The notes: generated by a model not told the origin, from the sequence alone. Positions 30,884 through 59,437 are shown, counted from the first letter of the stretch. The stretch is 64,000 bases of DNA from an uncultured beta proteobacterium (GCA_963801035.1 CAWDDF010000010.1:212496-276495), one strand, 5' to 3'. Program-made: numbers and translations.

Positions 30884-31788
30884 GGCTCAGCGCCATGAAT
30901 CAAACTCATAGGACGTCGTTGCTGTTAGTCGCAATTGCAGCGTCCGTCGCGCTGGCGGGTTGCGGTGACACGCCTCCCGCAGGAATCAAATTTGGTCCGT
31001 ATCAGGCGGGCCATGCGTCGAAGCCCGACCTCGCGCGCGTCGAGCACGAATTTCCGCTCGCTCGCAGCGATCTCGCGCAACTGACACCCGGCGCGCTGAA
31101 GTCGTACGACCAGGAGCAGATGGATCAGATCTATGCGCGCCTAACTGCGGGGCCGATTCCTGATGGTGCTTACGAAGGCGACCTGTTTTTCCCCAAGGGA
31201 ATTTCAGGTGATCGTCGCATACGGGAGATCATCGGTGGCCTGTCCGGACTCGCAGCCGGGGTTGGCACGGCCAAGGTAGAACTTGTGGGCAAGCATCTAT
31301 GGCGCGGCAAAGTGTTCTACCGCGACGAGTTGGTGCTCAGAAATCGGATCGACGATACGTCGCTGTTGAAGCCGTTGATCGACGGTGATCTGTCGACGAT
31401 TCCGAAGGTCACGGTTGGCGGCAAGGATCAATGGCTGATGTTCCCCGCGCGCCTTTATTGCGGGCAGAGCCTGCTCGATTCGCGCAGAGAGTCAGTCATC
31501 ATCGACTACTTCTACACCGACGAAATTCCAGGCTATCGCGAGCGCCCCGATTTTCTCGCGGGACGTCGTGGCCTGCAGGTGCGCGATGAGATCCGCATGG
31601 TGCGGCCTGGCTTCTATTTGGGGCGCGCTTACATCGGAAAGATTTTTCTTCTTAATTTCACGCTCTACAACAAGGAAGTCGCCGAGCGAGACGGTGGCAC
31701 GTTTACCAAAGGCGAACCGGTCAAGGAAGACTGCTGGCAAGGCACGCAGCAGCGACCCCTGCTAACAGCGGTGACGGCTTCGAAGTGA
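30880..31788 (+). CDS. Lipoprotein of unknown function
   Basis: The ATG overlaps the upstream stop (ATGA at 30880-30883). The signal peptide and lipobox read …LLLVAIAASVALAGCG. There is no haem motif. Confidence 0.6.
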   Translation: MRLSAMNQTHRTSLLLVAIAASVALAGCGDTPPAGIKFGPYQAGHASKPDLARVEHEFPLARSDLAQLTPGALKSYDQEQMDQIYARLTAGPIPDGAYEGDLFFPKGISGDRRIREIIGGLSGLAAGVGTAKVELVGKHLWRGKVFYRDELVLRNRIDDTSLLKPLIDGDLSTIPKVTVGGKDQWLMFPARLYCGQSLLDSRRESVIIDYFYTDEIPGYRERPDFLAGRRGLQVRDEIRMVRPGFYLGRAYIGKIFLLNFTLYNKEVAERDGGTFTKGEPVKEDCWQGTQQRPLLTAVTASK

Positions 31789-33698: not shown

Positions 33699-33711
33699 AA
33701 AGGAGATTGTT

Positions 33712-35299
33712 GTGAACGAGCCGTTTGATGAACCACGCGCGCACGGCTGGCTCACTCGCTTGTACCGTCATCGCTGGGTACGTGTCGTGATGCTCGCTCT
33801 CGCAATTCCGACTGCTGCGGCATTGGTGTTCGCGATCCTGCTGTGGCAACGCTTCGGCAGCGATCGTGCCGTCGAATACGCGGCGGTCGAAGAACACTTC
33901 AAATACGGATCGACCGGCGGTGAGCGCGCGTCGGGATTTCCGTATTGGATCTTCAAGGCAATGCCGGGTGTGTGCTCGAAGCATCTGCCGGGGGGCTATG
34001 CATCGCTCGGCTTCGTGTACGAGGAGGGCAAGGACTTGCCGATAGGCATGTCGATGCGCAACTACCAGGGTATCGATCGCACGTTTCTGAACTGCGCGGT
34101 ATGCCATGTCAGCACTGTGCGCGATACGCCGGAGTCAAAGCCGCGCATCGTTCTTGGCATGCCCGCGAATACTTTCAACCTGTTCGGCTTTCAAAGGTTC
34201 GTCTTCGACTGCGCACGCGATCCAAAATTTTCGACCGAGCTACATCATTGCCGAGATCGAGCGGCTGATGACCGACAAAGGCGAGAAGCTCGGGCTGCTC
34301 GATCGCCATCTGGTGTACCCGGTCGCCGTCGCATTGATGCGCGAGCGGCTGATGATGCTTTATGGACGGCTCGGCCCGTTGCTGCAGGACACTGACTGGG
34401 GGCCGGGCAGAACCGACACGTTCAATCCGAACAAGATCCTTTTCAACTTTCCGCTGGACAAAATTCCTGAGCGCGAGCGCAACGCCGCGGTCGACTTTCC
34501 GTCGATCTGGCTGCAGAAGCCGCGGCAGGGAATGCAGTTGCATTGGGACGGCAACAATGTGATGTCCGAGGAGCGCAACAAGAACGCAGCGTTCGGTACC
34601 GGGACAACACCGCCGACGATCGACCTCGCTGCCATTGCCCGCCTCGAACAATGGCTGCTAACGGCGGAGCCGTTGAAGTATCCGTACCCGATCGATGCGG
34701 CCAAATCGGCGCGCGGGCGTGAGATCTACACCGAATATTGCGCGGGCTGCCACGGCGCCGACGGCCGCACCTTCAGCGCGGCCGCTGGAACACAGACGCG
34801 TGAATGTGTGAACACGACTGTCAGCGATGACGATCTTTACGGCCCGCAGGTCGGCAAGATCACGCGCATCGAGCACATCGGCACCGATCGGCATCGGCTC
34901 GATTCGTTTTCGTACGACGTCGCGGTGCACCTCGGCACCGTGTACGCCGGTTATCCGCATCGCTACTGCCACTATCGCAAGACCTACGGCTACGCGAACA
35001 TGCCGCTCGACGGCATATGGCTGCGAGCACCGTATCTGCACAACGGTTCGGTGCCGACGCTGCGCGCGCTGCTCGAGCCGGCGAAACGCCCGGCGGTGTT
35101 TTATCGCGGCAACGACGTCTATGACCAGCAGGACGTGGGCTTCGTGGCCGATCTCCCTGAGCAGGCAGGGCGCCGCTTTTCCACTTACGACACAAAAAAA
35201 CCCGGCAACTCGAATGCTGGCCACGAAGGCAAGCTTTACGGTACCGAGCTGAGCCCGGGCGACAAGGATGCATTGATCGAATTCATGAAGACGTTCTAA
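33712..35299 (+). CDS. Membrane-anchored di-haem CCP/MauG-like cytochrome, interrupted by one apparent frameshift near 34222-34232
   Basis: An aaggag RBS lies 6 nt before GTG 33712. There is an N-terminal TM helix. CAVCH is at 34093-34107 and CAGCH at 34739-34753. LRAPYLHNGSVPTLRALL and the C-terminal DKDALIEFMKTF are present. It is collinear with the intact paralog at 35310. The frames switch at the ccaaaattttcg run. Confidence 0.75.
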
Positions 35300-35309
35300 G
35301 GATCAAACG

Positions 35310-36770
35310 ATGGCCGTTAAGAACAAGTCGGGTTGGAACTGGAAAAAGATTCTTGGCCTGTTTTTGATATTTGGCGTCGTATTCGGCTTTTACGGTTGGT
35401 ACAAGTTCTTTCGCGAGGAACCTCAGGAAGCCTGGATGACCGCAACGCCTGAGATGCGCTTCCGCTATGGCTCGATCGGCGGCGAGCGCGACGCAGGAAT
35501 CCCGTACTGGATCTTCTATGTGTTGCCGCGGCTTTTCCCAGAGAAGCTGCCGGGTCCCGGCGGCTACGCGTCGCTCGGCGTGTCATGGGAGCAGGGCAAA
35601 GAGCTGCCGATCGGCTTCACCAAAAAAACGATCGGGTTCCCGCGCGTGGGCAACAACTGTGCGGCGTGCCACACGACCAACTATCGCGCGGCGCCGAATG
35701 AAAACCCGGTGTTTCTGAATGCGGGGCCGGGACACACGCTGAACCTGGAAGCGTTCTTCCGCTTTCTTGTCGATTGCGCCAAGGATCCGCGCTTCAATGC
35801 CGACAACCTGATGCGAGAAATCAATCTCGTGACCGATCTGCCGTTCGACGACGCGCTCGCCTATCGCTTTCTGATCATTCCGATGACAAAGAAGCGATTG
35901 CTCGAGCGCGAGGCGCAGTTCGCTTGGATCTACCGCAAGGATTTTCCTGATTGGGGGCGTGGTCGGGATGATTCGATGAACTTGACGAAGTACTTCATGC
36001 TCAATCTGCCAATGGACAACACGTTCGGGCCCGGAGACATTCCGTCGATCTGGAACCTGAAGAAGTACAACGTCGCTGGAACCACAATGAACTGGTCGGG
36101 CGACAGCCACGACGCGTATTCGGTGATCATCGATTCCGCGCTGGGTGTGCTCGGCGCGCCGCCAAAGAGTAACGACGAGTTTCTCGAGCAGATCAATTGG
36201 CTGCAGGATTACCTGAGCAATAAGCCAGCGCCGAAGTATCCATTCGCCATCGACGCTGCACGCGCCGAGGCCGGGAAAGCGGTCTTCGACCAGCAATGCG
36301 CGACATGCCACACCAGCGACAAAACAGGTCGCCGCATGCCGCTCGCCGGCATCGATACCGATCGCGGACGAATGGATACATGGAACAAGGACAACGCAAT
36401 CGCAGCTAACAAGGTCGTGACCGAAATGGGCATCATTCGCAAGGGACTGGTTGAAGCGCCACTCGATGGATACAACCCGCCGTTTCTCGACGGCGTCTGG
36501 GCGCGCGGACCGTACCTACACCACGGCGCGGTGCCTACGCTGCGCGATCTGCTAGAACCTCCGGCGAACCGTCCCAAGGTTTTTTGGCGCGGCTACGACC
36601 TTTACGACCAGAAGAATGTCGGCTTTATCTCGAACGGTCCGGAGGCCGAGCGCGTCGGTACGAAGTTCGATACCAGCGCGCTGGCCAACGGCAACGGCGG
36701 TCACGTTTTTGGCACGACGCTGCCGGCCGTGGAGAAGGAGAGTCTGCTTGAGTACCTGAAGACGCTGTAA
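35310..36770 (+). CDS. Membrane-anchored di-haem CCP/MauG-like cytochrome (intact paralog)
   Basis: N-terminal TM helix ILGLFLIFGVVFGFYGWYKFF. CAACH is at 35658-35672 and CATCH at 36297-36311. ARGPYLHHGAVPTLRDLL and the C-terminal EKESLLEYLKTL are present. Blocks shared with 33712..35299 include F-YGS-GGER and G-PYWIF. Confidence 0.8.
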   Translation: MAVKNKSGWNWKKILGLFLIFGVVFGFYGWYKFFREEPQEAWMTATPEMRFRYGSIGGERDAGIPYWIFYVLPRLFPEKLPGPGGYASLGVSWEQGKELPIGFTKKTIGFPRVGNNCAACHTTNYRAAPNENPVFLNAGPGHTLNLEAFFRFLVDCAKDPRFNADNLMREINLVTDLPFDDALAYRFLIIPMTKKRLLEREAQFAWIYRKDFPDWGRGRDDSMNLTKYFMLNLPMDNTFGPGDIPSIWNLKKYNVAGTTMNWSGDSHDAYSVIIDSALGVLGAPPKSNDEFLEQINWLQDYLSNKPAPKYPFAIDAARAEAGKAVFDQQCATCHTSDKTGRRMPLAGIDTDRGRMDTWNKDNAIAANKVVTEMGIIRKGLVEAPLDGYNPPFLDGVWARGPYLHHGAVPTLRDLLEPPANRPKVFWRGYDLYDQKNVGFISNGPEAERVGTKFDTSALANGNGGHVFGTTLPAVEKESLLEYLKTL

Positions 36771-37028
36771 TGCTCTTGTTGAGCCATGCAGTGCACGCAT
36801 CAGCCGGTCGGATCGGACTGGCAACTTCACGCGAGCCCCACCCTGACTGTGGTGAGGTAAGTGCGGTTCGGCGAGTCGATTCACGCGGGGTTGACGCAGC
36901 GACCGGGATCCCGGGAACCATGGAGCGGAGCGACCACCGCAGTTGTCGACGCGGGGCTGGCGGCTGTGAGCCTTTCACTTGCAACCGAATGGCAGTAGAT
37001 TCGAATGCGAGGTTGAGGGACGTGGCTG

Positions 37029-40000
37029 ATGCAAATGCATAACTTTGACGCACCGGTACGACCGCTTCATCTCGCGGCCGTGCGAGACGCCGCGTTACTG
37101 ACGATCTCGTTGTCGGATTTGCGCTCGATCGCGATCGTCGAACCTGTGGCGATGGGTCCTGATGCGCTCGAAGACCTTGCGCGTTCCGTCGAGCGACTGC
37201 ACGACCTGCCCGTCGGTAACAGCCAGCAGGTCGCGGAGGCAGGCAGTCTCATCTTCCGCACGCTTTTCCCTGGACGTATCGGCGCTACTTTGCATAGCAG
37301 TCCCCCGCGCGAGCTCCACCTGCAGTTGAGCGCGCCGGTGACTGGCATTGCGTGGGAACTAGCGTTCGATGGCACCAGCTTTCTCGGCACCAAGTTCAGC
37401 GTGTCCCGATACATAGCTGGCGAGGATGAGGTGGCACCGGCCCACTCCTGGGCACCGCTCGAAGAGGCATGCAGAGTCTTGCTGGTCAGCGACGACTCGC
37501 ACTCGACGCAAGCGAGCGCTTATCAAGATCGCATATTGAATTCGCTTCGTGCATTGAAAGAACTTTCACCAACGGCGGCCACAGTCGCAGAACTCAGCCG
37601 AGGGCAATTGCACGACCTAATTGCAGCTTCCGACGTCGTGCATTGCACCGGCTCGCCTGGCGGAGCGCGCGTCTTGCTGGCCGATCTGGCGGCGCTTGCT
37701 CATCCGCCACGGCTGGTCGTCTATGAGTTATACGGCGACCGGAGCACCACCGCCGAGATCAGCACCGATGACGCGGTGCGGCTGTGCGCCGATGCGTCTC
37801 GTATCGGTATCAATGTTGTGATTCGCGCGACGACACCAGGGGACGCGAGCAGTGTGGAGTTCATCATCGACCTCTACCGGCACATCGTGTCGGGCATGAC
37901 CTTCGCCAGCGCCACGCAGCAGGCGCGCGCGGCCAGCGCCGCGAGGAGTGATGCCTGCCGCGTCGATGACCTTTTGGCCATGTATTGCGGTGACAGTGGC
38001 GCGGCGGCATTCGCCCGCGTCGAACGCGACAGCCGCGACGACAGTCAGCGTCAAATCACAATCATGTCGCACGATCTCGTGAACTCTACGCAGCTTATCG
38101 CGCGGCTTGGCGCAGAGGAATACACGGAGTTGCTCGAACGCTATCACGGGGTTTGCGCGCGCATCGTTCGGCGCTATGGCGGGATCAGCGACGAACCGCA
38201 GGGCGATGACGGAATAATGTGTTACTTCGGCACTCCCTTAGCTGACGAAGACGCCAGCGCCCAGTCGATACGAGCCGCACTCGAGATTGTTCAGGCGCTA
38301 GAGGGGTTCGGCGTCGGTGTGCGGGTCGGTATTAGCACTGGGCGCGTAGTGATTCGCGCGGGTCAGCCGGTAGGAGTTGCAGTACACCTAGCGGCGCGGC
38401 TCCAAAGCGTTGCCGAGCCAGGAACGATCGTCGTCAGCAACGCCACGCAGCGCTTGACCCAAGGCCGGTTCGAGTTCGAGCCGATAGCGTCCGCGTTGCA
38501 CCTGAAGGGCATCGCCGAACCGATAGTGGCGTTTCGCGTCGTTAGCGAGCTGCGATTCTCAACTTCCAGTCGATTCGATGCGGCGTTAAGCCTCACACCC
38601 TTCATCGGGCGCGATCGAGAGGTCGCCGTGCTCGAAGGATATTGGCAAACCACTTGCCGGGGTGCCGCGCAAGCGGTGCTACTGACTGGCGAAGCAGGCA
38701 TCGGAAAGTCGCGCCTGGTACGAGAATTTAAAAGCTCGCTGGCGGCGCGAGAGACGCCGACCATAGAATGTCGATGCTCGCCCTATCACACCAGTAGCGC
38801 GTTCTATCCGGTCATCGGCTGGCTGCGCCGCTTGCTGGAAATCCAGGACCACGATGCGCCAGAAACCAGGCTGGCGAAGATCGAGGACAGCGCAGTGGCC
38901 ACGCTCGGCGTTGAGGATGCGGTGACAACCATCGCAACACTCCTGTCAGTGCCACTCGACGGTTTGCGTTCCCCACCGAAACGCTCGCCCGAAAAGCAAC
39001 GGCAGCTGACACTTGATGTACTGGTGCAGTGGATCAAAACAATAGTGCAGGCAGGCCCGCTCTGCGTGTTCATCGAGGATGTGCAATGGCTCGATCCCTC
39101 GTCGCGCGAATTTCTGGAGCGATTGATGGCAAGCGCGAGTTCTTTGCCATTGATGACAATCTTGACGCTGCGTACTGAAGCTGTGGCACCTCGCGCCGAA
39201 GTGCGCATGACATGGGGCGCTTCCTTCCCTTACTCGGAGCTGCCATTGCGCGGCCTGTCCTCGGCTGCTGCACGCACTATGGTGCTGAAGGCCTGTGGCG
39301 ATGCGCGCCTGTCCCAGGAGATGGTGCGCCTGCTCGCCGAGCACGCTGACGGCGTACCCCTATTTATCGAAGAGTCGACACGCATGGCGGTCGAAGCAGT
39401 GCCCGAACAGGGTGAGCTGCAAGCCGCCGCGCTGCTGCGTAGTCCGGTGCCGCCCACGATCCACGATCTGCTGATGGCGCGGCTAGATCGCGTCGCCGCG
39501 GCCAAGCAAATTGCTCAGGTCGGTGCCACGATTGGACGCGAGTTCTCACGGGCGCTGATCGAATCGGTGCTGCAGCACGAGGCAGCGGGTATCGACGCCG
39601 GCGGCTTGCGATCCAAGCTTGACATGCTGGTGCAATCCGGCCTGCTGGTTTCCAGAGGCGGCGGACCGGATGAAGGCTATTTTTTCAAGCACGCACTGGT
39701 GCGCGACACCGCCTATCAATCGCTGTGGGAGAGAGACCGGCAGCGGTTGCACTGCGTTATTGCAAACGTTGTTCAGCACCAATTCGCCGCCCTGGCTGAA
39801 GCTCAACCTGAGCTGCTCGCGTATCACTACACCGAAGGCCGCATGGCCGGTGATGCGGTCGCGTATTGGGAAAAGGCAGCCCGGCGTGCCGCAGCTCGTT
39901 CGGCGCATCTCGAAGCCATCACTCATTTGAATAATGGCTTGGCGCTGGTTGGGAACCTGCCCGACGCGCAGGAGCGCGGCCGTGCCGAACTGCGAATGCA

Positions 40001-41204
40001 GCTGCTGCTCGCATCTCGGCTCATCGCAACCGAAGGGTACGGAGCGGAGCGCGTCGAGCGCGTGTATGCGCGCGCGGAAGTGCTGGCTCGGCAAGCCGGC
40101 GACGAAGTTGCGCTGACAAAAGTGCAGTTAGGTCTTGAGGGTTATCACTTCATGCGCGCCGATTTCGACAAGGCCCATGCCATTACGCTTAGCACTGCGG
40201 CGATGGTCATTCGCTCACCTGACCCGATGCCGAAGATCCAGTCGATGTGGGCGGTGTCAAACATCCTGTTTCATCAGGGCGAGGTACGCGCTGCGGTTGA
40301 TCACATGGACGACTGCCTGCGCGCCTATCAGCGCATCGAACACCGACCGGGCGCGGTGCAGGATCCGGGCGTGATGTGTCTGTGCTATTCGGCTTGGGGA
40401 AAGTGGGAGCTCGGATACCCGGACGAGGCCCTGCGCCGCGCGCGGCAAGTTGTCGCCCTCGCCGAAAAAATCGATCACCGCTTTAGCATGGGCGAAGCCT
40501 GGGGCTTCTGCACGACCGTACATTACTTCAGAGGCGAATACGAACAGGCGCTGCGATGCGCTGAGCGCGCGATCGAGATCTGTGAGGACAGTGGATTTGT
40601 GGTGTGGTTGGCGCATGCGAAGGTGATGCACGGGCGGCTGGTGGCAGAGCTCGCCGGCGCCGACGCAGGCGTTGCGGAAATGCAGCAGGCGTATCAGATG
40701 TGGTCTTCGACCGGCGCCGTGGTGACGCAGGCGTTTTACCTCGCAATGCAGGCGGAAGGTTTGTCACTCGCCGGCAAGCCCGACGAGGGCATAGCCGTGC
40801 TGGACATCGCATTTGACATCGTTCAGAAGGTCAAGGAGCGATACTACGAAGCCGAAATTCGCAGGCTGCGCGGAGAGCTTATGCTGCAATCGGCAGTGCG
40901 TTGGCGCGATGCGGCTGCCGAAGCCGAGCAGTGGTTTACTGGCGCGCTTGAGTTAGCTCGCGAGAAAGAACTGCGGTCGCTGGCGTTGCGCAGCGCAATG
41001 AGCCTGGCGCAGCTATGGCGAGCGCAAGGCCGAGGGAGTGACGCGCAGATGTTGCTCGAAAAAGAGGTCTCATGGTTCAGCGAAGGGCTCGATACGAGCG
41101 ATCTGCGGCGCGCCCATCGGCTGATGAGGCGTAGTGAGCAAACTAATGACAAGTCTTGGCTAACCAAGTCGCTTCACACGCCGAAAGCACGGCTGGTGCA
41201 GTAG
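37029..41204 (+). CDS. Multidomain signalling protein: degenerate CHAT-like N-domain / class III nucleotidyl cyclase / AAA_16-type STAND ATPase / TPR array
   Basis: Residues ~95-325 follow a CHAT pattern (GIAWELAFDG; DVVHCTGS; LVVYELYGD where the catalytic Cys is expected; GINVVIRATTPGDASSVEFIIDLYRHIVSGMTFASA). The cyclase core is ITIMSHDLVNST…QGDDGIMCYFG…VGISTGRVV…VAVHLAARL (~38052-38543). The P-loop is LLTGEAGIGKSRL (~38688-38711). The C-terminal ~500 aa look TPR-like. Confidence 0.8.
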   Translation: MQMHNFDAPVRPLHLAAVRDAALLTISLSDLRSIAIVEPVAMGPDALEDLARSVERLHDLPVGNSQQVAEAGSLIFRTLFPGRIGATLHSSPPRELHLQLSAPVTGIAWELAFDGTSFLGTKFSVSRYIAGEDEVAPAHSWAPLEEACRVLLVSDDSHSTQASAYQDRILNSLRALKELSPTAATVAELSRGQLHDLIAASDVVHCTGSPGGARVLLADLAALAHPPRLVVYELYGDRSTTAEISTDDAVRLCADASRIGINVVIRATTPGDASSVEFIIDLYRHIVSGMTFASATQQARAASAARSDACRVDDLLAMYCGDSGAAAFARVERDSRDDSQRQITIMSHDLVNSTQLIARLGAEEYTELLERYHGVCARIVRRYGGISDEPQGDDGIMCYFGTPLADEDASAQSIRAALEIVQALEGFGVGVRVGISTGRVVIRAGQPVGVAVHLAARLQSVAEPGTIVVSNATQRLTQGRFEFEPIASALHLKGIAEPIVAFRVVSELRFSTSSRFDAALSLTPFIGRDREVAVLEGYWQTTCRGAAQAVLLTGEAGIGKSRLVREFKSSLAARETPTIECRCSPYHTSSAFYPVIGWLRRLLEIQDHDAPETRLAKIEDSAVATLGVEDAVTTIATLLSVPLDGLRSPPKRSPEKQRQLTLDVLVQWIKTIVQAGPLCVFIEDVQWLDPSSREFLERLMASASSLPLMTILTLRTEAVAPRAEVRMTWGASFPYSELPLRGLSSAAARTMVLKACGDARLSQEMVRLLAEHADGVPLFIEESTRMAVEAVPEQGELQAAALLRSPVPPTIHDLLMARLDRVAAAKQIAQVGATIGREFSRALIESVLQHEAAGIDAGGLRSKLDMLVQSGLLVSRGGGPDEGYFFKHALVRDTAYQSLWERDRQRLHCVIANVVQHQFAALAEAQPELLAYHYTEGRMAGDAVAYWEKAARRAAARSAHLEAITHLNNGLALVGNLPDAQERGRAELRMQLLLASRLIATEGYGAERVERVYARAEVLARQAGDEVALTKVQLGLEGYHFMRADFDKAHAITLSTAAMVIRSPDPMPKIQSMWAVSNILFHQGEVRAAVDHMDDCLRAYQRIEHRPGAVQDPGVMCLCYSAWGKWELGYPDEALRRARQVVALAEKIDHRFSMGEAWGFCTTVHYFRGEYEQALRCAERAIEICEDSGFVVWLAHAKVMHGRLVAELAGADAGVAEMQQAYQMWSSTGAVVTQAFYLAMQAEGLSLAGKPDEGIAVLDIAFDIVQKVKERYYEAEIRRLRGELMLQSAVRWRDAAAEAEQWFTGALELAREKELRSLALRSAMSLAQLWRAQGRGSDAQMLLEKEVSWFSEGLDTSDLRRAHRLMRRSEQTNDKSWLTKSLHTPKARLVQ

Positions 41205-41221
41205 ACGCCCCAGGAGGCAAC

Positions 41222-43150
41222 ATGGTCGAGGTGGTCGAAGTCAATCTAAACGCATTCGACGAGCTGATGCGAAACAAGCCGTACGCTGCAAATCGTTTGC
41301 TTTTCGACTGGTTGAGCGATGACAGGCGTCGCCTGGACCTGTACGAGGCGTTACGCGACCGACGGGTTCTAAAGTTTCAAAGCCGCGCCGAGATCAAAAA
41401 CCCACCGCCGCAGCCACCGACGTTCAGGCAAGACGTTTTTTTAGTGGCTTCGGCCGATCTGATCAAGGAAGCGCTGTCGGACTCGGCCAGATTCAGCAAC
41501 ACACCGTACGCCGCGCTTGGAACCGGCACGTTCATGTTGGCACTGAACGACCGCGATCCGGCGCATCCGAAGCAACGTGCCTTCGTAATTGACGCCCTTA
41601 AATCAGCATCTGACCCTGAGCATCTAACGGCGCTGATCAGGACCGCATTCCGAGTCGCGGCTACGCTGCCACTGAAAAAGTCAGAGTTCGACCTCGCGCA
41701 ACTCGCGGAACAAACAGCGTTGCGCTTTGCCGGCCTGATGTTCGGATATTTGGCCAGTGACCATCCGATGCTCGAGAACACGCTTAGCAGAGCGTTTCGC
41801 GGTCTTAACTATCAGATTCTCGCGCGGCACTTTGTCAGCGAACCCGGTACGGTTCCGGATGCCACCGGGGCAATGGGAGCGCTGCTCACGCGCACTGCGG
41901 CGCTGATCGACCAGTATGCCTCCTCCGGGGTTCCGTCAGAGCAAAAGGAGCTCTACGAGAAGATCGGGCTCAAGAACTTCAGCCCGGCGTTCGAAGTGAT
42001 GGGCCAGCATCCCGCCGAACTCTCCGGCACCGAGCGTGCTATCGCAGCGGTGGGCACGCTTGTCGGCATCATTGGCAACGTACAGGCAAGCGTCTGCATT
42101 GCCGTCAACCAGATCTTCGAGGATAAAGAGCTACCCGAAGTTGCGCGAGCGGCACGCGATGACGACTTCGTTATCCAGCGGGTCGTACGCGCGCTAAAGC
42201 AGCATCCGCCTGCTGCCTTTTTGCCACGCCAGGCTATCAAAGATACCGAGCTTGGCGGTGAGAAAATTCCGAAGGATTCGGTTCTGATCCTGGCAATGGG
42301 AGCCGCCAACGATGAAGCGTTGATCTTCGGCGGTAACAACGATTCATATGGGCATCGATGCCTCGGCAAACATCTCGCGTTACCGCTTATAGTGAGCATG
42401 GTCAAGCAAGTCGTGCTGCTGCCCGGACTCGCTCGTACAAAAGACGTTGTGACGGGCGACCCGATTCGACTTTCAAAGTCGTGGGGGTTCAAGTGCGAGA
42501 AGTTTCCGCTGCGCTACGACCGCGACCAGGTGCTGATACAGCAGCCGCTGAACGTCATCATGAACGTTAAGCAACCGGTACCCGAGAACGCCGCGAAGCT
42601 GAAGCTTGTGATCAAGTACGGCGCGCCTCAGATTGAAAGCAGCCTAACGGCGTCCCGGCATGTGCATTTCGCGTGGTTCGTTTTTCTCGAGAACGACACC
42701 AAGCTTGCCTTGTTCACGACTTACGATGGAGATTTCGACGCCTACATCGAGCACTTCGCATTGCAAGTAGGTCCACTGTTTGACAGGTTGTTGGAACACA
42801 TCGAGGATGCGCCGCCGCGTCCCGTAAGGCAATTCCCCAAGGAGTTCGTCGAAACGATTCGGCGCTACAACGAGGCGCCGGTCGAGGGCTACTTCTTTAG
42901 CGCCTATACGAAGCAAAGCGTAGCGGCAATCCAAGGCGCCGCTACAGCCGCCGAAAAAACCCGGAAAGCGGTTTTACAGAAAGCACTGCGTATGACACTC
43001 GTCGAATCGGCAAATATTGAGCACATCGCAAAACCCGTCGCAGCGCGCCGGCCGTCGGGGATAGATCTCGAAGCCGCACAGATCCAGCGCATTGTCGTCG
43101 TCTGGGTACCGGTCGCAGTGCGCCCGCCACTTCGTGCTGGCAATTGCTGA
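41222..43150 (+). CDS. Atypical cytochrome P450-like domain plus unassigned ~150-aa domain; reading frame runs into the Dyp N-terminus
   Basis: An aggagg RBS precedes ATG 41222. The P450 Cys-ligand loop is FGGNNDSYGHRCLGKHLALP (Cys codon 42359-42361). LKQHPPAAFLPRQAIKDTELGGEKIPKDSVLIL matches the K-helix/meander region. The I-helix region GIIGNVQ lacks the usual acid-alcohol pair. The frame-1 tail IDLEAAQIQRIVV looks like a Dyp N-terminus. Confidence 0.65.
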   Translation: MVEVVEVNLNAFDELMRNKPYAANRLLFDWLSDDRRRLDLYEALRDRRVLKFQSRAEIKNPPPQPPTFRQDVFLVASADLIKEALSDSARFSNTPYAALGTGTFMLALNDRDPAHPKQRAFVIDALKSASDPEHLTALIRTAFRVAATLPLKKSEFDLAQLAEQTALRFAGLMFGYLASDHPMLENTLSRAFRGLNYQILARHFVSEPGTVPDATGAMGALLTRTAALIDQYASSGVPSEQKELYEKIGLKNFSPAFEVMGQHPAELSGTERAIAAVGTLVGIIGNVQASVCIAVNQIFEDKELPEVARAARDDDFVIQRVVRALKQHPPAAFLPRQAIKDTELGGEKIPKDSVLILAMGAANDEALIFGGNNDSYGHRCLGKHLALPLIVSMVKQVVLLPGLARTKDVVTGDPIRLSKSWGFKCEKFPLRYDRDQVLIQQPLNVIMNVKQPVPENAAKLKLVIKYGAPQIESSLTASRHVHFAWFVFLENDTKLALFTTYDGDFDAYIEHFALQVGPLFDRLLEHIEDAPPRPVRQFPKEFVETIRRYNEAPVEGYFFSAYTKQSVAAIQGAATAAEKTRKAVLQKALRMTLVESANIEHIAKPVAARRPSGIDLEAAQIQRIVVVWVPVAVRPPLRAGNC

Positions 43151-44411
43151 CCCGGTTCGGGCGCGGCGATGGCTAGCCGCGGTGGCAAATGAAATCACGC
43201 TGGCGTCGAACAAGGACCCTAAGGACCGTCACGATAAGACCGAGCACATCAACGTCGGCTTTACGTATCGCGGTTTACGGAGCCTGCAGTTGGACGCGAA
43301 GTACTTGTCGATCTTCCACGTCAAGGCCCCCGCCTTCACCGAAGGCGCGTGGTTCCGCGCGGCGCGCAGACTCGGCGACACCCTCGAGAGCGACACGGAT
43401 TTCTGGGACGATCCGTTCCAGCCGGACTCATCGCACGTGATACTGCTGTTGCACGCCGAATCTGAAGAGGCACTGGACGATACGGTCAAGCGACTCAGGG
43501 AATATGGCGGTGCCGATGGGCTGTCAGGTTGGGACGAAGCATTCGACGCCGCGCACATTACCGACGACCCGGATGACCGGCGCGCGCACTTCGGGCTGAA
43601 GGACGGCATTACCCGGGTTCACATCGAGGGCATCTACCAAGGCGACGATCCGAACATGCACAAACCGGGCGAGCTGCTGCTCGGCTACACGAATGACGAA
43701 GGGTTTAACCCATGGGTGCTGGCCAAGCAGCCCGATGAAGTCGGCGAATTCTTCAAGGACGGCAGCTTCGGTGTGTTTCGCAAGATGGAGCAGGACGAAG
43801 CGGCATTTAACACGTTCGTCGGTCTGTGCGCCGCTGCGCTGGGAGAAACTCGCGAATACGTCCTCTCCAAGTTCGTCGGGCGCTGGCCCGATGGCCAGGT
43901 AATTGACGCGAAGTCGCATTCGATCCCGCCGAAAGCTTTGCCCAAAGGTGGCCGCGTTGACGATTTTGACTTCAGTCAGGACGATCGTGCTATTGGCTGT
44001 CCGTTCGGCTCGCACATCCGGCGCATGAATCCCCGAAAAGACGCCGTCGTTCCATTTCGCCGGCGGCCGCTGATACGGCGTGGTATGCCCTACGGCAAGG
44101 CATTCGCGAAAGGTAGCGAGTCGGAAAAGCGCGGCTTGATGGGTTTGTTTTTCTGCGCCAGCATCGAAGATCAGTTCGAGCACCTGGTTGCCGAGTGGGC
44201 GGAAAAGAATCCGATCGGGATCAATAATCAGGGCGATTGCAAGGATCCACTGACAGGAAGCCATGGGGCAGCGCCGTCGATCTTTGATATTCCGATGCCC
44301 GATGGGTCGTCGCGCAAGATCGTCGGCTTTCGCCCCTTTGTCATCACCCGCGGCACGCTGTACGCGTTTTTCCCCACCAAGCCGGCGTTGCAGGCGATCT
44401 CCAAGAACTGA
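43092..44411 (+). CDS. Dyp-type haem peroxidase (probably fused to, or frameshifted from, the preceding ORF)
   Basis: The GxxDG motif is HFGLKDG (Asp codon ~43602). The proximal-His motif is GCPFGSHIRRMNPRKD (His ~44013). RRGMPYG is present. The N-terminal SGYRSQCARHFVLAIADPVRARRWL continues the upstream frame's …AAQIQRIVV. Confidence 0.8.
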   Translation: MSSSGYRSQCARHFVLAIADPVRARRWLAAVANEITLASNKDPKDRHDKTEHINVGFTYRGLRSLQLDAKYLSIFHVKAPAFTEGAWFRAARRLGDTLESDTDFWDDPFQPDSSHVILLLHAESEEALDDTVKRLREYGGADGLSGWDEAFDAAHITDDPDDRRAHFGLKDGITRVHIEGIYQGDDPNMHKPGELLLGYTNDEGFNPWVLAKQPDEVGEFFKDGSFGVFRKMEQDEAAFNTFVGLCAAALGETREYVLSKFVGRWPDGQVIDAKSHSIPPKALPKGGRVDDFDFSQDDRAIGCPFGSHIRRMNPRKDAVVPFRRRPLIRRGMPYGKAFAKGSESEKRGLMGLFFCASIEDQFEHLVAEWAEKNPIGINNQGDCKDPLTGSHGAAPSIFDIPMPDGSSRKIVGFRPFVITRGTLYAFFPTKPALQAISKN

Positions 44412-44471
44412 GCACATCGGCGCACGCCCAGGAAGCGTCTGTCGCGACTACCACGGTTGGCTGCCCGAACT

Positions 44472-46473
44472 ATGCAAGCGGTGCGCGCGCGCATAAAGCG
44501 ATGGTTAAACCGCCGTGAAGACACGGGTTGTGAGCAAGGTAAGCCCGATCCCGAACCCGAACCCTTTGTCGACAAGGCGCCGCCCGATCGCTTTTGCGAT
44601 CTCGTGCTGACGGGCGGTGTTACCAGCGGCGTCATTTATCCGTCCGTCGCCGTCGAGTTAGCACGCCATTACCGCTTCAAGAACATCGCCGGCACTTCGG
44701 CGGGCGCCATCGCGGCAGCCTTGACGGCGGCGGCGGAATACGCGCGGCGCAAGAGTCTTCCCGGCAGATTTGAGGCATTGAGCGACGTTCCGAAGCGGCT
44801 AGCCGAGGAAGGTCAACGGCAAGACGCGCTTGCTGTCGCTATTCCAACCGTCTCCGAAAACGAAGCGCCTATTCGGGCTTTTTCTTGGCATGTTGAACAA
44901 GAGCGAGGCCGGATCAGGAATGACATGGTCTGGCATGCTCGCCTGGACACTGGTAAAGCAATACTGGTTTGCGTTGGTTGTGCCGCTGCTGCTGGGATTG
45001 GCGCTCGCGTACGCGGTCACGCCGCGCTGGCTTGCGGTGATGGTCGGCCTCTGCGCCTTCGTTACCGCCGGTGTGATATGCGTTGCCCACCGTGTGTACA
45101 GAGACCTGAATGACGGCATGATTTCCAACGGGTTCGGTCTATGCAAAGGAAGCGAAACCAGCGATCCCGAGAATCCCGCTTTGACCGACTGGCTGCACGA
45201 AAATATTCAGAAGATGGCCGAAAAGGCCGACGCAGAGCCGCTGACTTTTAAAGATCTGTGGCGCGCGGAGCCATTACCAGAGTGGCTGGCTGACTTCTTC
45301 CCGCCCGACAAAGGAAGGGCAATCAATCTGCAGATCATTACCGCGAACCTGACCCATGGCCGTCCCTACCGTCTGCCGTTGGATGACGACTCGACCCGTC
45401 TTTTTTTCAAGGAAAGCGAGTGGCGAACATACTTTCCCGCCGGCGTGATGACGCACCTCTTGAAAGACAACGTCTCGCCGCGGTATGCGCCACGCGACAG
45501 CTCGGAGCCGCCCATTGATGGCGACACCGAAGGTCTGCGTGAGCTTCCAAAAGACAAGCTTCCGATCGTAGTTGCCGCGCGCCTGAGCCTGAGCTTCCCG
45601 TTTCTTTTTTCGGCGGTTCCCCTTTGGGCCATCGACTTCGAGCCAAAGATCGAAGTCGACAAAACGCACCGAAGAAAGCTGCGGCGGTGCTGGTTTTCTG
45701 ACGGCGGCATCTGCTCCAATTTTCCGATCCATCTATTTGATGCCTTCCTGCCCAAATGGCCGACCTTTGGCATTTCTTTGGGCCGACGCAGCCCGTTTCG
45801 CCCCGCCGAGCGCACTTGGTTGCCTGACTTTCATAACGAGGGGAGCGCGGACGCTTGGAACCGCTTCGATGATGAAACATCGCTGGCGACCGGCAAGCCG
45901 CGCAAATCGCTGCAGCGGCTCGTCGGTTTCGCGATGAGCATCATCGCGACAGCCAAGGACTGGAATGACAACACCGAGATGCGAATGCCAGGCTACCGCG
46001 ACCGCGTCGTTCGCGTCGGGTTCTGCGACGGTGAGGGAGAATTGAATGTCAGGCTGGACGATAAGGAGATCCTGCGGCTTGCCAGAGACTATGGCACCGC
46101 GGCGGGTAAAAAGCTTGTGGATAGATTCATCGGTCGGGACCCGGACTGCCCTTCGCAGGCCTGGAGAGATCATCGATGGGTGCGCTTCAATGTATTGCTG
46201 CAATCACTGCGCGAGCGCGTCAATATGATCACGCTGGCAGCGGAAGCAACGCCATACACGCAGCCGCTGAAGGAGCAGATCGCCAAAGCGTTCGCGGCGC
46301 GCCCGCTGTACGGCGTTAGGGATCATGAAGCGCCGTTGAGCGCGGCACAGGCCGACGCACTGGACGGGCTGCTCAATGCAATGATTGAACTTGAGCGGCA
46401 GTTCGAGAAGTATGCCGCGCAGCAGCCGTATCAAGCGGAGCCGAGGCCAAGCTTGAGAAATCGTCCGCCCTGA
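44472..46473 (+). CDS. Patatin-like phospholipase with internal TM hairpin and long C-terminal domain, interrupted by one apparent frameshift near 44805-44830
   Basis: Oxyanion region LVLTGGVTSGV. Nucleophile elbow GTSAG (Ser ~44697). Asp of the dyad in WFSDGGICSNFPIHLFD (~45700). Hydrophobic stretches are WFALVVPLLLGLALAYAV and LAVMVGLCAFVTAGVICVA. The two track ORFs (44457..45113 and 44830..46473) are collinear. Confidence 0.8.
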
Positions 46474-46490
46474 TAATCGCCGAGACATCG

Positions 46491-46682
46491 CTATCGGGTT
46501 CTGAGCGAAGTAACCGGCCTTAGGGTCGGTTCAACACATACTGCTTCCACGACACTCCGCCGGCGATGCTTTCCTTGTCTCGAATCATGTGACTCGCCGA
46601 ACACGTCGCGCAGATCGCGACACAGGTGCCCTGCAACGTACTGATCTGGATGTCGACGGTAGCTAACGAAGATCTTCGTCAT
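46491..46682 (-). pseudogene. TIR-domain gene remnant (N-terminal ~55 aa only, frameshifted)
   Basis: MTKIFVSYRRHPDQYVAGHLCRDLRDVFGES continues in another frame as MIRDKESIAGGVSWKQYVLNRP*. This covers only the TIR beta-A/alpha-A/beta-B region. The rest is missing, because the convergent patatin gene ends at 46473. Confidence 0.6.
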
Positions 46683-46748
46683 TACTCAACAATCCGTCGC
46701 GGGCATTGCAGTTTCAACGCGAATATTCGGCAAAGGCTGACTGACCGA

Positions 46749-49700
46749 TCAGTTCGTCCTGCCATACGTCTGCAGTTTCGCCAGCAGCTCTCCGGCTGCG
46801 CGACCCTCGCCGCCTGTAGCGCGCGCTGCGTACTTCGGCAGCACGAACGACGCCTGGTCGATTACCGAGCTCCACATCGAAGGCGCGCTGACGCGGGCGA
46901 ACAGATCCTCGAATTCCTGCTCGATCTCGGGGCGCTCGGCCGCGAGACGCCGCTCTGCGATCGCGATGTACATGCGCAACTCGATGACGCCAACGAAACT
47001 CCAGAAGTCAGGATCGTCTCGCGCCTTGGCCGCGAGACTGTCCCTTATTTCTGCCAACACCGAGTCGTCGAACTTGTGCGAGCTTCTGTTTCCTGCATCG
47101 ACGATCAGCTCAGCCGCCATCCGATTCAGCGCCGGATAAAACAGTGCTGAGCGATCGGTAGCGCGCGCGAGTGCCTCTGCTCGCGCATACGCTGCCTTCA
47201 TGCCGCTAATGGCGGTGAGCTCTTTGTCCGGCTTTCCGGCCGCTGCTTCAATCAACGCGAGTCGCTTCCACGCGGAGCCGCAAAGATTCTCACGCTCGAT
47301 CGAGGGCTGCAGCCTGGTCAGTCCTTCGAGCAAATCGAGCGCGGCCTTGACTTCCGCTCGCGCGTGCTCCAGTTGCGCCGCACTCGGCTTGGCTTTACCG
47401 GTGTGAGCCTGCTCTACAACTTGCAATGCAAGTCGCGAACGCAGGTTGCCGAGTTGTTCGCCCGCCTTGATCGAAGCGCTTCCATCGTTGGCGGCGAGCG
47501 CTTTGCGGTACCACGCGATTGCCGACGCGAAGTCTTTCGTCTCGGCCCACGCGACGCCGTAGGCCTCGGCCACCGCCCCCATGTCACCCCAGTGTTTTCC
47601 GAATTGCTCTTCGAGGTGGCGGATCTTCTCGCGCTGAGTCTCTTTGTCCGCTTTCTGGTAGCGGCTCTTTATCGCCAGTGATTCGAGCGCAAGCGTTAGC
47701 GCGACGGGGGACGCGACACCGGCAAACTCATCGGCCAGGGGCGGAGAGGGGTGCTGTGCATCGCCGACGCCGCGGCGGAAAACCCAGTCAGGATCGCCGT
47801 AGCACTGGTAGGCGCCCCACGTGTTACCTCCTCGCGCGTGCGCTGCGGTGCGCGCTGCCGCCACGGCGTCGATGAAGCGGCGGCCGCATAGCAATGCGTC
47901 GTAGAACGTCGTCGCAAAGATCATTGCAGGCTCGTCTTCAACCGCCCAACCGGCAGCGACGACGCAACGCACGCCGATCTTGATCAGCTCTTCGGCGACG
48001 TTCGCGGCGAAACGCGACCGGTCGTAAGAGCCCGTAAGCACCTCGCTTGGATTGCGTGCCGCCAGATGGCAGCAGTTGACGAACACCAGCTCCGGCACTG
48101 CACGCATGTTGCGAATCTCGCGCGTGCCGAGAAACGAGTCGCCCGACAGCACGACCCCGCGGGGATTGACGAGCTGCTGCAAGGGGTCATCTTGCTTTTT
48201 CGGAATCGGACCCGCCATCTCCGGCGGCTCGCCGTGGCCAGCGATGTGCACGATGCGCCAGTCGCGCTCCATCAACGTGTTGATGACGGTGAGCGCGTCG
48301 GCACCGAACTGCTGCGGGTCATCGGGGCTGATCAGCGCCTTCACTTGTTGCGCGCCAACCGTCTTCAAACGCTCTGCGACCGCGTTCGCCTCGATGCGCG
48401 CGCCGATCAGGCGCGGGTACCGGCTATCGCATTTGGGTTCGCCGATTACGAGCACGCTCGCATCGGCGTCGGCGTCGACGATCTGTTGGCGAAACTCTGC
48501 CGTCCGCAGCTTGCGCAGAAGCTTCGCGCGAATCGCCCACGGCGGCTGGTCGTGCGACGTGGCGCCTTGGTCGGTGTCGAGCAGCTCCCAGGGAATTCCG
48601 GCGGTGCCGCTGTCGAGCTCCATCACCATTTCGGTGGTCCCGCCGAGGAACGGCTCCATCTCGACCGGCACCAGCAGCTGGAACAGCGTGCGGCCGATAC
48701 GCCGATCGGTGTTCTGATCGTTCGATGCGCTGGCTACCAGCTCGCGCAGCAGCGGCCCCTGTGTGGCCTGTGCACGAACTTCAGTTCGCGCCCGCTTGGT
48801 ATCGAGCGTGTACGCGATCATGGCGTCGTTGTGCAGGCCGAGTTGTGTGACGGCCGAGATGAAGTCGTAGTTGACACCTCGATAGCTCGAGTCGAGCGGC
48901 CTCCGCAGCGCGCCGGTCCCTTGGCGCACGACGTCGGTGACCGCATAGCGGCCCGGTGTTGCCGTGTCCTGCACCTGCAACGAACGCCAGGCCTCGGTCG
49001 CGCGGTCGAGATACAGCTCGACCAGATGCAGGTGGCCGACGCGAGGCCAGCGGCGAACGGGGCGCTTGCTGTCGGCTGCGCGCTCCAGGGTCTCCTTTTC
49101 ATTGGCCTCACGCAGACGATCGTCCGCCTCACGCACGCCTTGTACGACGAGCTGCGCCGACTGGCCCACGGTGATCCCGGTACCGCCGCTGCCGATCATC
49201 GTGGCCGCGAGCTCGAACAGAGCGGGAGCGTCGGCGTTGGTCTCGCCGATACGTTGTGCCCATGCGATCGTCGCTTGCCGCACCGTGTGAACAAGCTCAG
49301 CGGGGGAAAGTTTGCCTTCCTCACCGAGGCCGACCACGACCACCGCTTCAGGTCGCGGCGGCAGCCACGGGTTGTCCGGATCTGCCTGCATATTGATGAA
49401 CACCTGGTGCGTGCCGGTCGGTACCGGGTATAGGCCGACCTTCAGCGCGTCTTCCATCGCGCCGCCTATCAGCTGGTTCATCACGGCTTCGGTGCCCGAC
49501 AAACGCAGAGAGCGATAGTGTCCGATCAATAACGGCTCGCGGATGAAACGAAGGTCGCCATTGACGACCGTGACTTGCAACGCGGCGCCGCGCGCGGCCG
49601 GACCGGCGATGGTCTGCCGATCGTCGAGCGAAAGCAGTTCGCGCGCGTTCTCCGGCGGCGGTCCGGTCACCCGGGTGCGTGACGGCCGGCTGCGTACATG

Positions 49701-54030: not shown

Positions 54031-54204
54031 GCGCTCCTCCCTTACTTTCTTGGGCTCGATCATCGCCACAATCGATCGCCTCGGCAACCGCTTACATCGA
54101 TGAGTGCGTCGTGAAAAATGGACAAGATGCTTGTTGACTACTGCGTTAACGTTCGCGAAACGTGACCATGACGCTCTTCGAATCCCGGTAGCCACGTCAT
54201 CGCC

Positions 54205-59429: not shown

Positions 59430-59437
59430 AAGCGTCG

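Follow-up and report, generated by a model that had tools for sequence, protein, structure and literature searches.

Positions 37029-46473 of a 64,000-nucleotide (nt) stretch of DNA from an uncultured beta proteobacterium (GCA_963801035.1 CAWDDF010000010.1:212496-276495; this whole stretch is referred to as the window, and all positions are counted from its first letter) carry four genes, all co-directional on the + strand, which encode a STAND-type sensor fused to a class III nucleotide cyclase, a cytochrome P450 with a C-terminal ABM-like domain, a DyP-type haem peroxidase and a patatin-like phospholipase. Comparison with related loci shows that the STAND-cyclase, the P450(-ABM) and the DyP form the invariant core of a conserved cassette, to which the patatin and a CRP-type regulator pair are added as optional modules. 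Judging from sequence and predicted folds, we tentatively propose that this cassette may encode a STAND-gated module for cyclic nucleotide monophosphate (cNMP) signalling and, coupled to it, a membrane-associated enzyme complex that uses peroxide to modify lipids.

Conservation, gene fusions and exchange of the cassette

A scan of 185,579 species-representative genomes yielded 40 loci (L005-L044), which were examined together with the metagenome loci L001, L003, L045, L047 and L048 and the contig encoding protein P0003. The query for homologues was the reconstructed P450-DyP protein, and many P450s of about 600 amino acids (aa) with the same C-terminal extension were found. In every locus with enough sequence (about 45 loci) the STAND-cyclase, P450 and DyP genes are adjacent and co-directional, and their order is permuted in L014 and L037 only. 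Recurrence of this gene set in about 45 loci puts the arrangement far beyond chance. The patatin gene follows the DyP gene in 24 of the approximately 37 loci that reach far enough (about 65%); P450 and DyP are always present. Almost all hosts belong to the Burkholderiales (Rhodoferax, Albidiferax, Rubrivivax, Ramlibacter, Polaromonas, Rhizobacter and Pseudaquabacterium), besides one Pseudohongiella.

Junctions between the genes are short, with 4-nt overlaps in the gene calls of several relatives, and the identity of each protein to its window counterpart covaries among STAND, P450 and DyP across the loci (r = 0.72-0.76). Two kinds of natural fusion join neighbouring products: full-length P450-DyP fusions (P0003, P0005 and P0013) and seven DyP-patatin fusions (P0322, P0323, P0356, P0364, P0365, P0370 and P0376), and in L047 the order is STAND, P450 and a DyP-patatin fusion. 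A first-pass annotation of the window had taken the tight spacing of these genes as a sign of a single operon, and the synteny, the 4-nt stop/start overlaps of the relatives, the fusions and the covarying identities all agree with one operon-like functional unit.

The cassette also has sharp borders. Nucleotide similarity to relatives ends exactly at the edges of a slot at 36771-46748: the flanks at 30480-36770 and 46749-50546 are 85% and 78% identical at the nucleotide level to L040, and the flank at 32415-36771 is 85% identical to L029, while the interior is similar to neither. In both L040 and L029 the slot holds the same four genes, only 38-42% identical in aa sequence and inverted relative to the flanks. 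Since the whole cassette has been swapped and inverted between conserved flanks, the four genes move and are replaced together.

Organisation and reading frames of the window copy

The features of the cassette in the window are as follows.

36771..46748, no strand assigned: cassette slot, at whose edges nucleotide similarity to relatives ends exactly
37029..41204, + strand: STAND-type sensor/cyclase gene, an intact open reading frame (ORF) of 1391 aa
37029..38042, + strand: degenerate CHAT-like N-terminal domain, aa 1-338 (Pfam CHAT in homologues)
38043..38510, + strand: class III nucleotide cyclase domain, aa 339-494 (Pfam and conserved catalytic residues)
38073-38075 and 38205-38207, + strand: codons of the cyclase metal Asp residues, with the HLAAR motif at 38385-38399
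38598..39161, + strand: AAA_16 (STAND) NTPase domain, with Walker A at 38688-38711 and Walker B at 39066-39083
40026..41201, + strand: C-terminal TPR region, for sensing or partner binding (Pfam TPR_12, TPR_10 and TPR_2)
41222..42532, + strand: cytochrome P450 haem domain, aa 1-437, with IGNVQA at 42071-42088 and the haem ligand Cys380 at 42359-42361
42533..42991, + strand: ABM-like (dimeric alpha+beta barrel) domain at the P450 C-terminus, about aa 438-590 (model fold)
about 42987, + strand: extra T relative to L045, by which the P450 stop (TGA, 42993-42995) is lost
42992..44411, + strand: DyP-type haem peroxidase gene, with its native ATG at 42992; the ORF as read is 43092-44411
about 43100, + strand: extra base inside GTCGTCGTC relative to L045, which shifts the DyP reading frame
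43602-43604, 44013-44015 and 44079-44081, + strand: DyP codons for the distal Asp, the proximal His and the distal Arg, respectively
44472..46473, + strand: patatin-like phospholipase gene, frameshifted (Pfam Patatin and homologue alignment)
44610-44630, 44697-44699 and 45700-45702, + strand: patatin oxyanion motif TGGVTSG, Ser codon (in GTSAG) and Asp codon (in SDGG), respectively
44965-45018 and 45028-45087, + strand: predicted transmembrane helices of the patatin (hydrophobic stretches read in the sequence, without a predictor)

The P450-like ATG at 41222 lies 17 nt past the STAND stop at 41204, and an AGGAGG Shine-Dalgarno sequence, read at 41212-41217 (+), ends 4 nt before it. The DyP gene stops at 44411, and the patatin gene runs from its ATG at 44472 to its stop at 46473; a promoter/terminator scan found no terminator-like site in any + strand intergenic gap of the cassette. 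The first-pass annotation had these four junction positions and the identities of the genes right, and the patatin serine that it placed near 44697 is the GTSAG serine in the list above; it overlooked the frameshifts, the ABM-like domain and the CHAT-like domain.

What had been described as one P450-Dyp open frame is in fact a P450 ORF (41222-43150) and a DyP ORF (43092-44411) in different frames, overlapping by 59 nt. As a reference for these two genes we used DNA alignment to L045, an intact short-read metagenome contig whose P450 is 84% identical in aa sequence and in which P450 and DyP are two genes, the P450 stop overlapping the DyP ATG as GTATGA. Relative to L045 the window has the extra T at about 42987, and because this removes the P450 stop the P450 ORF as read extends to 43150; the second extra base, at about 43100, displaces the DyP frame. 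A single frameshifted P450-DyP fusion gene in the window was considered and ruled out, as the two genes of L045 are separate, overlapping at ATGA, and two insertions are present in the window. The patatin, likewise treated as one open frame, is split into two ORFs in different frames, 44472-45113 with the Ser motif and 44830-46473 with the Asp motif, and the intact 666-aa homologue P0264 (75% identity, 99% query coverage) places the shift at about 44812-44822.

A fourth single-base insertion, located at 34240 by comparison with two relatives, splits a RoxA-like gene upstream of the cassette. None of the four insertions has a homopolymer context, and their rate is about one per 3-4 kb inside the cassette and outside it alike, a pattern that a noisy long-read assembly would explain a little better than targeted decay would. 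As these alignments indicate, the window copy is a damaged or mis-assembled version of the cassette. Many other overlapping same-strand ORF pairs of the window were also tried as frameshifts and rejected, since they turned out to be separate genes with over-extended starts. Frameshifts in three of the four window genes could also speak for a chance juxtaposition of unrelated or decaying genes, a reading that we find scarcely tenable against about 45 loci, the fusions, the overlapping junctions, the covarying divergence and the conserved catalytic residues, and which synteny and fusions already contradict.

The STAND-cyclase sensor

The sensor consists, in this order, of a degenerate CHAT-like domain, a class III cyclase, an AAA_16 NTPase and TPR repeats, and its homologues (38-57% identity) adjoin the P450 in all loci. 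Pfam recognises Guanylate_cyc at aa 339-494 (E = 1.2e-10, 41.7 bits), AAA_16 at aa 524-711 (6.4e-24) and TPR_12 in the single 1391-aa ORF, in agreement with the earlier description of a STAND/TPR sensor fused to a cyclase. The NCBIfam model TIGR03903 (TOMM kinase/cyclase) matches aa 300-1328 with 488.4 bits, below its cut-off of 705.75 bits; the alignment begins at profile position 233, and the N-terminus of the sensor is CHAT-like, the kinase being absent.

The N-terminal 338 aa of the window protein have no Pfam match of their own, and a profile search of the PDB with the N-domain gave no match either. As a word-indexed homologue search with this domain returned one match, it was named instead through a Pfam scan of homologues derived from the loci, in which CHAT recognises 9 of the 11 homologous N-domains (best E = 2.9e-7). 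These fall into two subtypes that are homologous to each other (hhalign probability 99.8%). Because the CHAT catalytic Cys is missing at the dyad position in all N-domains compared, as read in the sequence, we regard the domain as a degenerate CHAT-like one; the dyad His is lost as well in the second subtype.

The two metal Asp residues of the cyclase (D349 and D393) and the transition-state Arg (R457, in HLAAR) are kept in nearly all of 34 homologues. At the remaining positions of the active site Glu or Asp takes the place of the specificity Lys, Gln that of the specificity Asp and a nearly invariant His that of the catalytic Asn, so that neither specificity pair of canonical cyclases (Lys/Asp for adenine, Glu/Cys for guanine) nor their catalytic Asn is present. 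The closest solved structure is the cyclase domain of Mycobacterium tuberculosis Rv1900c (1ybt, 1.3e-15, 61 bits), and active Rv1900c likewise has a His at the Asn position. Both the Walker A (GxAGxGKS) and the Walker B (hhhhD..W.D) motifs of the NTPase are conserved over the 34 homologues. Mean pairwise identity is highest in the cyclase (56%) and lowest in the CHAT-like domain (30%); the TPR region, with 52%, is as conserved as the enzymatic parts and not hypervariable, which suggests that it recognises a conserved ligand rather than an arms-race target.

The two haem proteins and the ABM-like domain

The window P450 has a weak Pfam match, and a PDB profile search with it returned P450s only. 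Its AlphaFold model (pLDDT 77.5) finds P450BioI, CYP134A1 and GcoA as best PDB folds, with target-normalised TM-scores of about 0.72. Six residues are invariant in 20 P450 homologues (G285, N286, Q288, H378, C380 and G382), the haem loop being HxCLG. In the I-helix the canonical AGNETT aligns to IGNVQA, Val287 and Gln288 taking the places of the acid (Glu) and the alcohol (Thr), and the first-pass annotation was right in noting that the acid-alcohol pair is lacking. A special catalytic role for the invariant Asn286 was considered and rejected, as it is the ordinary N of AGNETT. The analogy to CYP74-type enzymes that the same annotation drew finds no backing in relatedness: the nearest sequences and structures are ordinary bacterial P450s, with no CYP74 among the best 60 PDB sequence matches and the top 50 Foldseek matches listed.

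No ferredoxin or reductase family that could serve as redox partner is recurrent among the clustered neighbours or among the 25 commonest of 100 flanking Pfam families. Because the P450 has neither oxygen-activating residues nor a conserved redox partner, peroxide is its likeliest oxidant or ligand, and from these sequence features we infer a peroxide-using or isomerase-type enzyme.

The C-terminal domain of the P450 has no Pfam match. Its model (pLDDT 87.9) resembles ABM/LsrG-type barrels as best PDB folds, with match probabilities as high as 1.0 but weak E-values (0.01-0.1). Among 1.84 billion representative sequences we found 645 ABM-like relatives, which occur as P450 C-termini, as standalone or tandem proteins and as N-terminal fusions to DyPs. 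Outside the cassette the family is seen at L050 2780-5066 and in the proteins P0207, P0218, P0255 and P0236; in L050 a tandem ABM-like copy lies directly upstream of a DyP gene whose product is 31% identical to that of the window. As the domain is fused or adjacent to DyPs outside the cassette, it can be considered a recurrent DyP companion. It also carries invariant His residues (in HVHF and IEHF of the window protein), which could bind a cofactor.

The DyP matches Pfam DyP_N (2.3e-9) and TIGR01413 (5.7e-18), and aligns over its full length with its nearest PDB entries, 8re3 and 8re2 (1e-34), followed by D-type/fungal-type DyPs and DyP2. Conservation of the motifs HFGxxDG, CPxGxHxRRMNPR and RRGxPY reaches at least 95% in 36 DyP homologues, and at motif level the distal Asp and Arg and the proximal His are intact, which upholds the peroxidase identity assigned earlier. 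Reading of the sequence revealed no signal peptide, which indicates a cytoplasmic protein.

This complete peroxidase site, next to a P450 without oxygen-activating residues or conserved redox partner, would also suit a sensor of peroxide or redox state linked to membrane repair. The haem proteins would then act upstream of the sensor, detecting or detoxifying H2O2 or organic (lipid) hydroperoxides, the patatin would remove oxidised acyl chains, and the STAND-cyclase would report by cNMP to CRP-type regulators. The tight translational coupling and the conserved TPR region fit protein-protein sensing, and a CRP-type regulator is indeed linked to the cassette. We nevertheless consider such a role distinctly unlikely, because with about 40 occurrences in 185,579 species representatives the cassette is rare and sporadic for a stress response, its exchange in one slot would be unusual for a housekeeping stress system, and no known peroxide-stress regulator or antioxidant gene is recurrent nearby; moreover, those bacterial membranes that are rich in monounsaturated acyl chains peroxidise poorly.

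Aromatic or secondary metabolites could also be the substrates. The cassette would then be a small-molecule oxidation pathway with a pathway-specific STAND regulator, comparable to LAL/MalT-type regulators or to the TOMM kinase/cyclase, whose model is the closest in NCBIfam (488 bits), and the patatin would serve as an esterase and not as a phospholipase. Bulky aromatic molecules are oxidation substrates of the DyPs nearest to the C/D type, ABM-fold domains (here recognised from fold matches) often use polyketide, quinol or aromatic substrates, and a LigB-type dioxygenase gene follows the cassette in the Rhodoferax loci. The latter is limited to one closely related clade, however, recurrent biosynthetic core genes (polyketide synthase, nonribosomal peptide synthetase, RiPP precursor or transporter) are absent, and the two predicted transmembrane helices of the patatin, with its fusion to DyP in several lineages, speak for a membrane substrate, so that we rate this pathway as very improbable.

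The patatin-like phospholipase

Once the frame is restored, the patatin has 666 aa, the same length as intact P0264, and aligns end to end with its homologues. Pfam Patatin covers profile positions 1-47 in the first ORF and 89-190 in the second. The motifs TGGVTSG, GTSAG and SDGG are conserved in about 20 homologues, and with the oxyanion, Ser and Asp motifs intact at motif level the family assignment made in the first pass holds. The two predicted transmembrane helices are inserted between the Ser and Asp motifs. In its C-terminal 217 aa Pfam recognises nothing, and a sequence comparison of the protein with the PDB gave no match.

Nucleotide readers, regulators and a possible role in defence

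A CRP-like gene (cNMP_binding plus HTH_Crp) stands beside 14 loci, and a second linked gene, with a weak GerE match in one gene-call table and no Pfam match in L007, beside 11 loci. These two genes are found mostly in loci without the patatin. In comparison with E. coli CRP, the CRP-like proteins have retained its GE...RSA phosphate-binding cassette. The 64 kb of the window hold no CRP-like gene. Among the cassette products themselves, hhalign gave a probability of at most 0.4% for a CAP-type cNMP-binding domain in the patatin, DyP, P450 and STAND proteins, and no cNMP_binding appeared when the five ORFs of the cassette and the C-terminal 217 aa of the patatin were scanned with Pfam.

These results bear on the first-pass proposal of a CBASS- or Pycsar-type path from nucleotide to patatin, which they do not support: the cyclase is of class III and lies in a STAND protein, there is no CD-NTase, PycC matches are marginal, no effector with a cNMP-binding domain was detected and the patatin is optional. 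PADLOC PycC models match the sensor cyclase with 22.6, 16.4 and 14.8 bits (E = 1.5e-5 to 3.6e-3), more weakly than Guanylate_cyc and Rv1900c, and PADLOC gave no match for the P450, the DyP or the patatin.

In a broader sense, a role in anti-phage defence or abortive infection may still be envisaged, in which the STAND/TPR protein would sense an invader and activate the patatin, directly or through a cyclic nucleotide and perhaps with haem radical chemistry, so that the membrane is destroyed in a manner resembling Avs, CBASS or Pycsar. A STAND NTPase with TPR repeats and an N-terminal CHAT-like domain, a membrane-anchored patatin as a typical effector type, the sporadic taxonomic distribution and the swapping of a divergent cassette in one slot between genomes with 85% nt-identical flanks are all in keeping with such a role. 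So is part of the gene neighbourhood, given that three TIR proteins, a caspase-like protein and a 1738-aa hydrolase-CHAT-TPR-S protein are encoded near the cassette in the window and that the cassette of L003 lies beside bpMoxR/bpX genes and a contractile-injection locus. The flanks of the 26 other loci tell otherwise: a census of 129 ORFs showed heterogeneous, mostly housekeeping genes with only four PADLOC families, and the locus keeps a stable synteny with ordinary genes in Rhodoferax and Albidiferax. The absence of PADLOC matches for the three enzymes, the marginal PycC matches, the lack of a detected CAP-type domain in any enzyme (with the C-terminal 217 aa of the patatin blank in Pfam) and a transcription factor as the only recognisable nucleotide reader also argue against it, as do an optional patatin beside an obligatory P450 and DyP and a TPR region that is not hypervariable. 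On balance a defence role seems to us rather unlikely.

A working model for the cassette

Returning to the proposal of a STAND-gated cNMP module coupled to lipid-modifying enzymes, we suppose that the P450(-ABM), the DyP and the patatin would form one physical enzyme unit at the inner membrane: the two kinds of natural fusion suggest that the three enzymes act as one complex, and the membrane anchor of the patatin would locate it. In this unit the patatin would release acyl chains or lysolipids, and the two haem enzymes, probably by peroxide chemistry, would act on a hydrophobic substrate, lipid-derived or other, by oxidising or rearranging it. The enzymes or their product are possible candidates for the conserved ligand or partner that the TPR region would bind. 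By analogy with STAND proteins and with class III cyclases, which are obligate dimers, NTP-dependent oligomerisation of the STAND protein would then dimerise the cyclase domains and allow them to make a 3',5'-cyclic nucleotide, which would probably be cAMP or cGMP. In loci with a CRP-type regulator gene nearby, the conserved GE...RSA of the regulator suggests that it would read this nucleotide and change transcription. Control may run from the sensor to the enzymes, or the sensor may be fed by them. The lipid or oxylipin-type pathway that the first-pass annotation had offered as an alternative receives indirect support from the DyP-patatin and P450-DyP fusions.

Several observations weigh against this model. 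The lipid substrate is suggested by the association with patatin alone, and about one third of the loci lack the patatin; most patatin-bearing loci, that of the window included, are without a nearby CRP-like gene. Owing to the non-canonical specificity residues and the His in place of the catalytic Asn, the product of the cyclase and its level of activity are uncertain. The P450 could perhaps be non-catalytic, or a haem sensor. With three of its four genes frameshifted, the window copy may be inactive. Finally, a literature search found no description of the system.

A bolder version would have an NLR-like STAND sensor hard-wired to a phospholipase-peroxidase-P450 metabolon that makes oxidised lipid mediators or drives lipid peroxidation, with the cyclic nucleotide as second messenger. 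We regard this version as quite doubtful; were it true, the cassette would be a prokaryotic counterpart of the eicosanoid or jasmonate pathways, or of ferroptosis-like regulated membrane death, and the P450-DyP and DyP-patatin fusions would be new classes of self-sufficient multi-haem lipid oxygenases.

Genes flanking the cassette

Immediately upstream of the cassette lies a co-directional operon (28271-36770, +). Its first gene (28271-30883) encodes a protein with a cytochrome c haem motif and a weak match to dihaem cytochrome c peroxidase, the next two (30880-31788 and 31785-33698) have no family match, and at its end are two paralogues of RoxA-like dihaem cytochrome c peroxidases (34106-35299, the one split at 34240, and 35310-36770). 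The window locus thereby concentrates genes of haem peroxidase type. The RoxA-like genes were considered as part of the cassette and rejected, since they adjoin it only in the window, L029 and L040 and stand on the opposite strand in the latter two; this dihaem operon probably lies outside the cassette.

Downstream, and convergent with the patatin gene, is the gene of the 1738-aa protein (46749-51965, -), which has an N-terminal alpha/beta-hydrolase domain (DUF7379, LCAT-like lipase) followed by CHAT and TPR-S, has no PADLOC match and is conserved in L040. The three TIR proteins of the window (25782-27212, -; 54205-55989, +; 58446-59429, +) are all weak ThsB or SAVED-TIR matches in PADLOC; that at 54205-55989 carries CHASE2, and another precedes a TPR/OmpA (MotB-like) protein (59339-60742). 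Together with the TIR proteins, a caspase-like ORF (53416-54654, -) gives the region the look of a conflict-gene neighbourhood. Since this ORF shares about 450 nt with the TIR-CHASE2 ORF of the other strand, at least one of the two starts must be over-extended.

Further from the cassette, at 13022-17895 (+), an ORF for a CheB-CheR fusion and a PAS/GAF/PAS histidine-kinase ORF lie in different frames and have about 170 nt in common, and the pair could be a frameshifted hybrid gene or two genes. At 20257-21303 (+) the ORF of an AMP-binding enzyme starts at Pfam profile position 160, so that its N-terminal third is missing or in another frame, which may reflect a further assembly indel.

In L003 (1-5835) the cassette lies directly downstream of bpMoxR, bpX5 and bpX6, and a contractile-injection-system locus (CIS_TMP) follows. 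A 660-aa protein without Pfam match is encoded divergently upstream of the cassette or of the regulator pair in L001 (157-2139, -), L015, L016 and L018. GDPD (glycerophosphodiester phosphodiesterase) genes flank three of the loci L005-L044, few loci, and may bear on phospholipid breakdown.

Novelty and comparison with known systems

The individual domains of the cassette are already known; what is apparently new is their fixed combination, the P450-DyP and DyP-patatin fusions and the DyP-associated ABM-like domain. A full-text literature search found no description of the association of P450, DyP, patatin and cyclase, and it is unnamed in the Pfam, PADLOC and NCBIfam libraries. We place the cassette as a variant among the STAND-type modules of signalling or conflict. 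Should lipid oxidation be demonstrated as its function, it might be regarded as categorically new, and bacteria would then have a new route, controlled by a second messenger, to oxidised lipids. The physiological inputs of STAND-type cyclases are largely obscure, and a fixed set of partner enzymes gives a handle on what these proteins sense or control. Cultured isolates of Rhizobacter (for example GCA_001424785.1), Rhodoferax (R. ferrireducens BE313 and Rhodoferax sp. OV413) and Pseudaquabacterium inlustre carry this compact, transferable cassette, and its natural fusions and uncatalogued ABM-like domain are relevant to haem-enzyme biochemistry and biocatalysis.

Like CBASS of the CapV type, the cassette unites a nucleotide-producing enzyme and a patatin-like phospholipase in one operon. 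It differs in having no CD-NTase, since Pfam and PADLOC scans of the five ORFs give class III Guanylate_cyc only, and in its patatin, which has a two-helix membrane anchor, is optional and has no PADLOC match at E <= 0.01. With Pycsar, and with its cGMP-producing offshoot 'Pucsar' as far as the available part of the preprint describes it (bioRxiv 10.64898/2026.08.12.744502), the cassette shares a cyclase homologous to class III cyclases that may make a 3',5'-cyclic mononucleotide. As far as that part of the preprint allows a comparison, the cassette differs from both in that its cyclase is one domain of a 1391-aa STAND protein and in that two haem enzymes are obligatory; in contrast to Pycsar, moreover, its enzymes have no detectable cNMP-binding domain, and the only nearby reader is a CRP-type transcription factor.

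With a STAND NTPase between an output domain on the N-terminal side and a repeat sensor on the C-terminal side, the sensor protein resembles Avs and bNACHT proteins, and activation by oligomerisation would be expected in both cases. Yet PADLOC finds no Avs or NACHT match, the Pfam NACHT score (16.7 bits) is below cut-off, the NTPase is an AAA_16 of MalT-like type, the TPR region is not hypervariable, and a cyclase provides the output in place of a nuclease, protease or TIR domain.

The sensor can also be compared with the TIGR03903 proteins and the mycobacterial proteins Rv0386, Rv1358 and Rv2488c, which have a class III cyclase, an AAA_16 NTPase and TPR repeats in that order, and with Rv1900c (LipJ), which has the nearest cyclase domain and shares the His-for-Asn substitution. 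Non-canonical specificity residues have also been reported for Rv0386. In the sensor the N-terminal kinase of TIGR03903 is replaced by the degenerate CHAT-like domain; mycobacterial-type cyclase-ATPase-TPR proteins have a C-terminal LuxR-type helix-turn-helix, and no helix-turn-helix is present in the cassette sensor. Obligatory P450 and DyP partners are not known for the TIGR03903 and mycobacterial proteins.

Enzymes of oxylipin metabolism offer a precedent for the enzymatic half. CYP74 allene oxide synthase, fungal Ppo and the CYP152 peroxygenases have P450s without acid-alcohol pair or redox partner and are linked to an acyl-releasing lipase, and in Ppo a peroxidase-type haem enzyme is fused to the P450. 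All three traits recur in the cassette, that is, a P450 lacking the pair and the partner, a fusion of peroxidase and P450 and the link to an acyl-releasing lipase. The cassette differs in other respects: the fusion order is P450 then DyP, the peroxidase is of the DyP and not the animal-peroxidase/cyclooxygenase superfamily as in Ppo, and the P450 has no affinity in sequence or structure to CYP74 or CYP152, P450BioI, CYP134A1 and GcoA being the best among the matches listed. No lipoxygenase or dioxygenase is recurrent in the conserved gene set or among the commonest flanking families. The DyP itself agrees with C/D-type DyPs (the fungal type and Amycolatopsis DyP2) in its full-length alignment, its distal Asp and Arg and its proximal His; unlike them it is cytoplasmic, always paired with an ABM-like domain and, in some lineages, fused to the P450 or the patatin.

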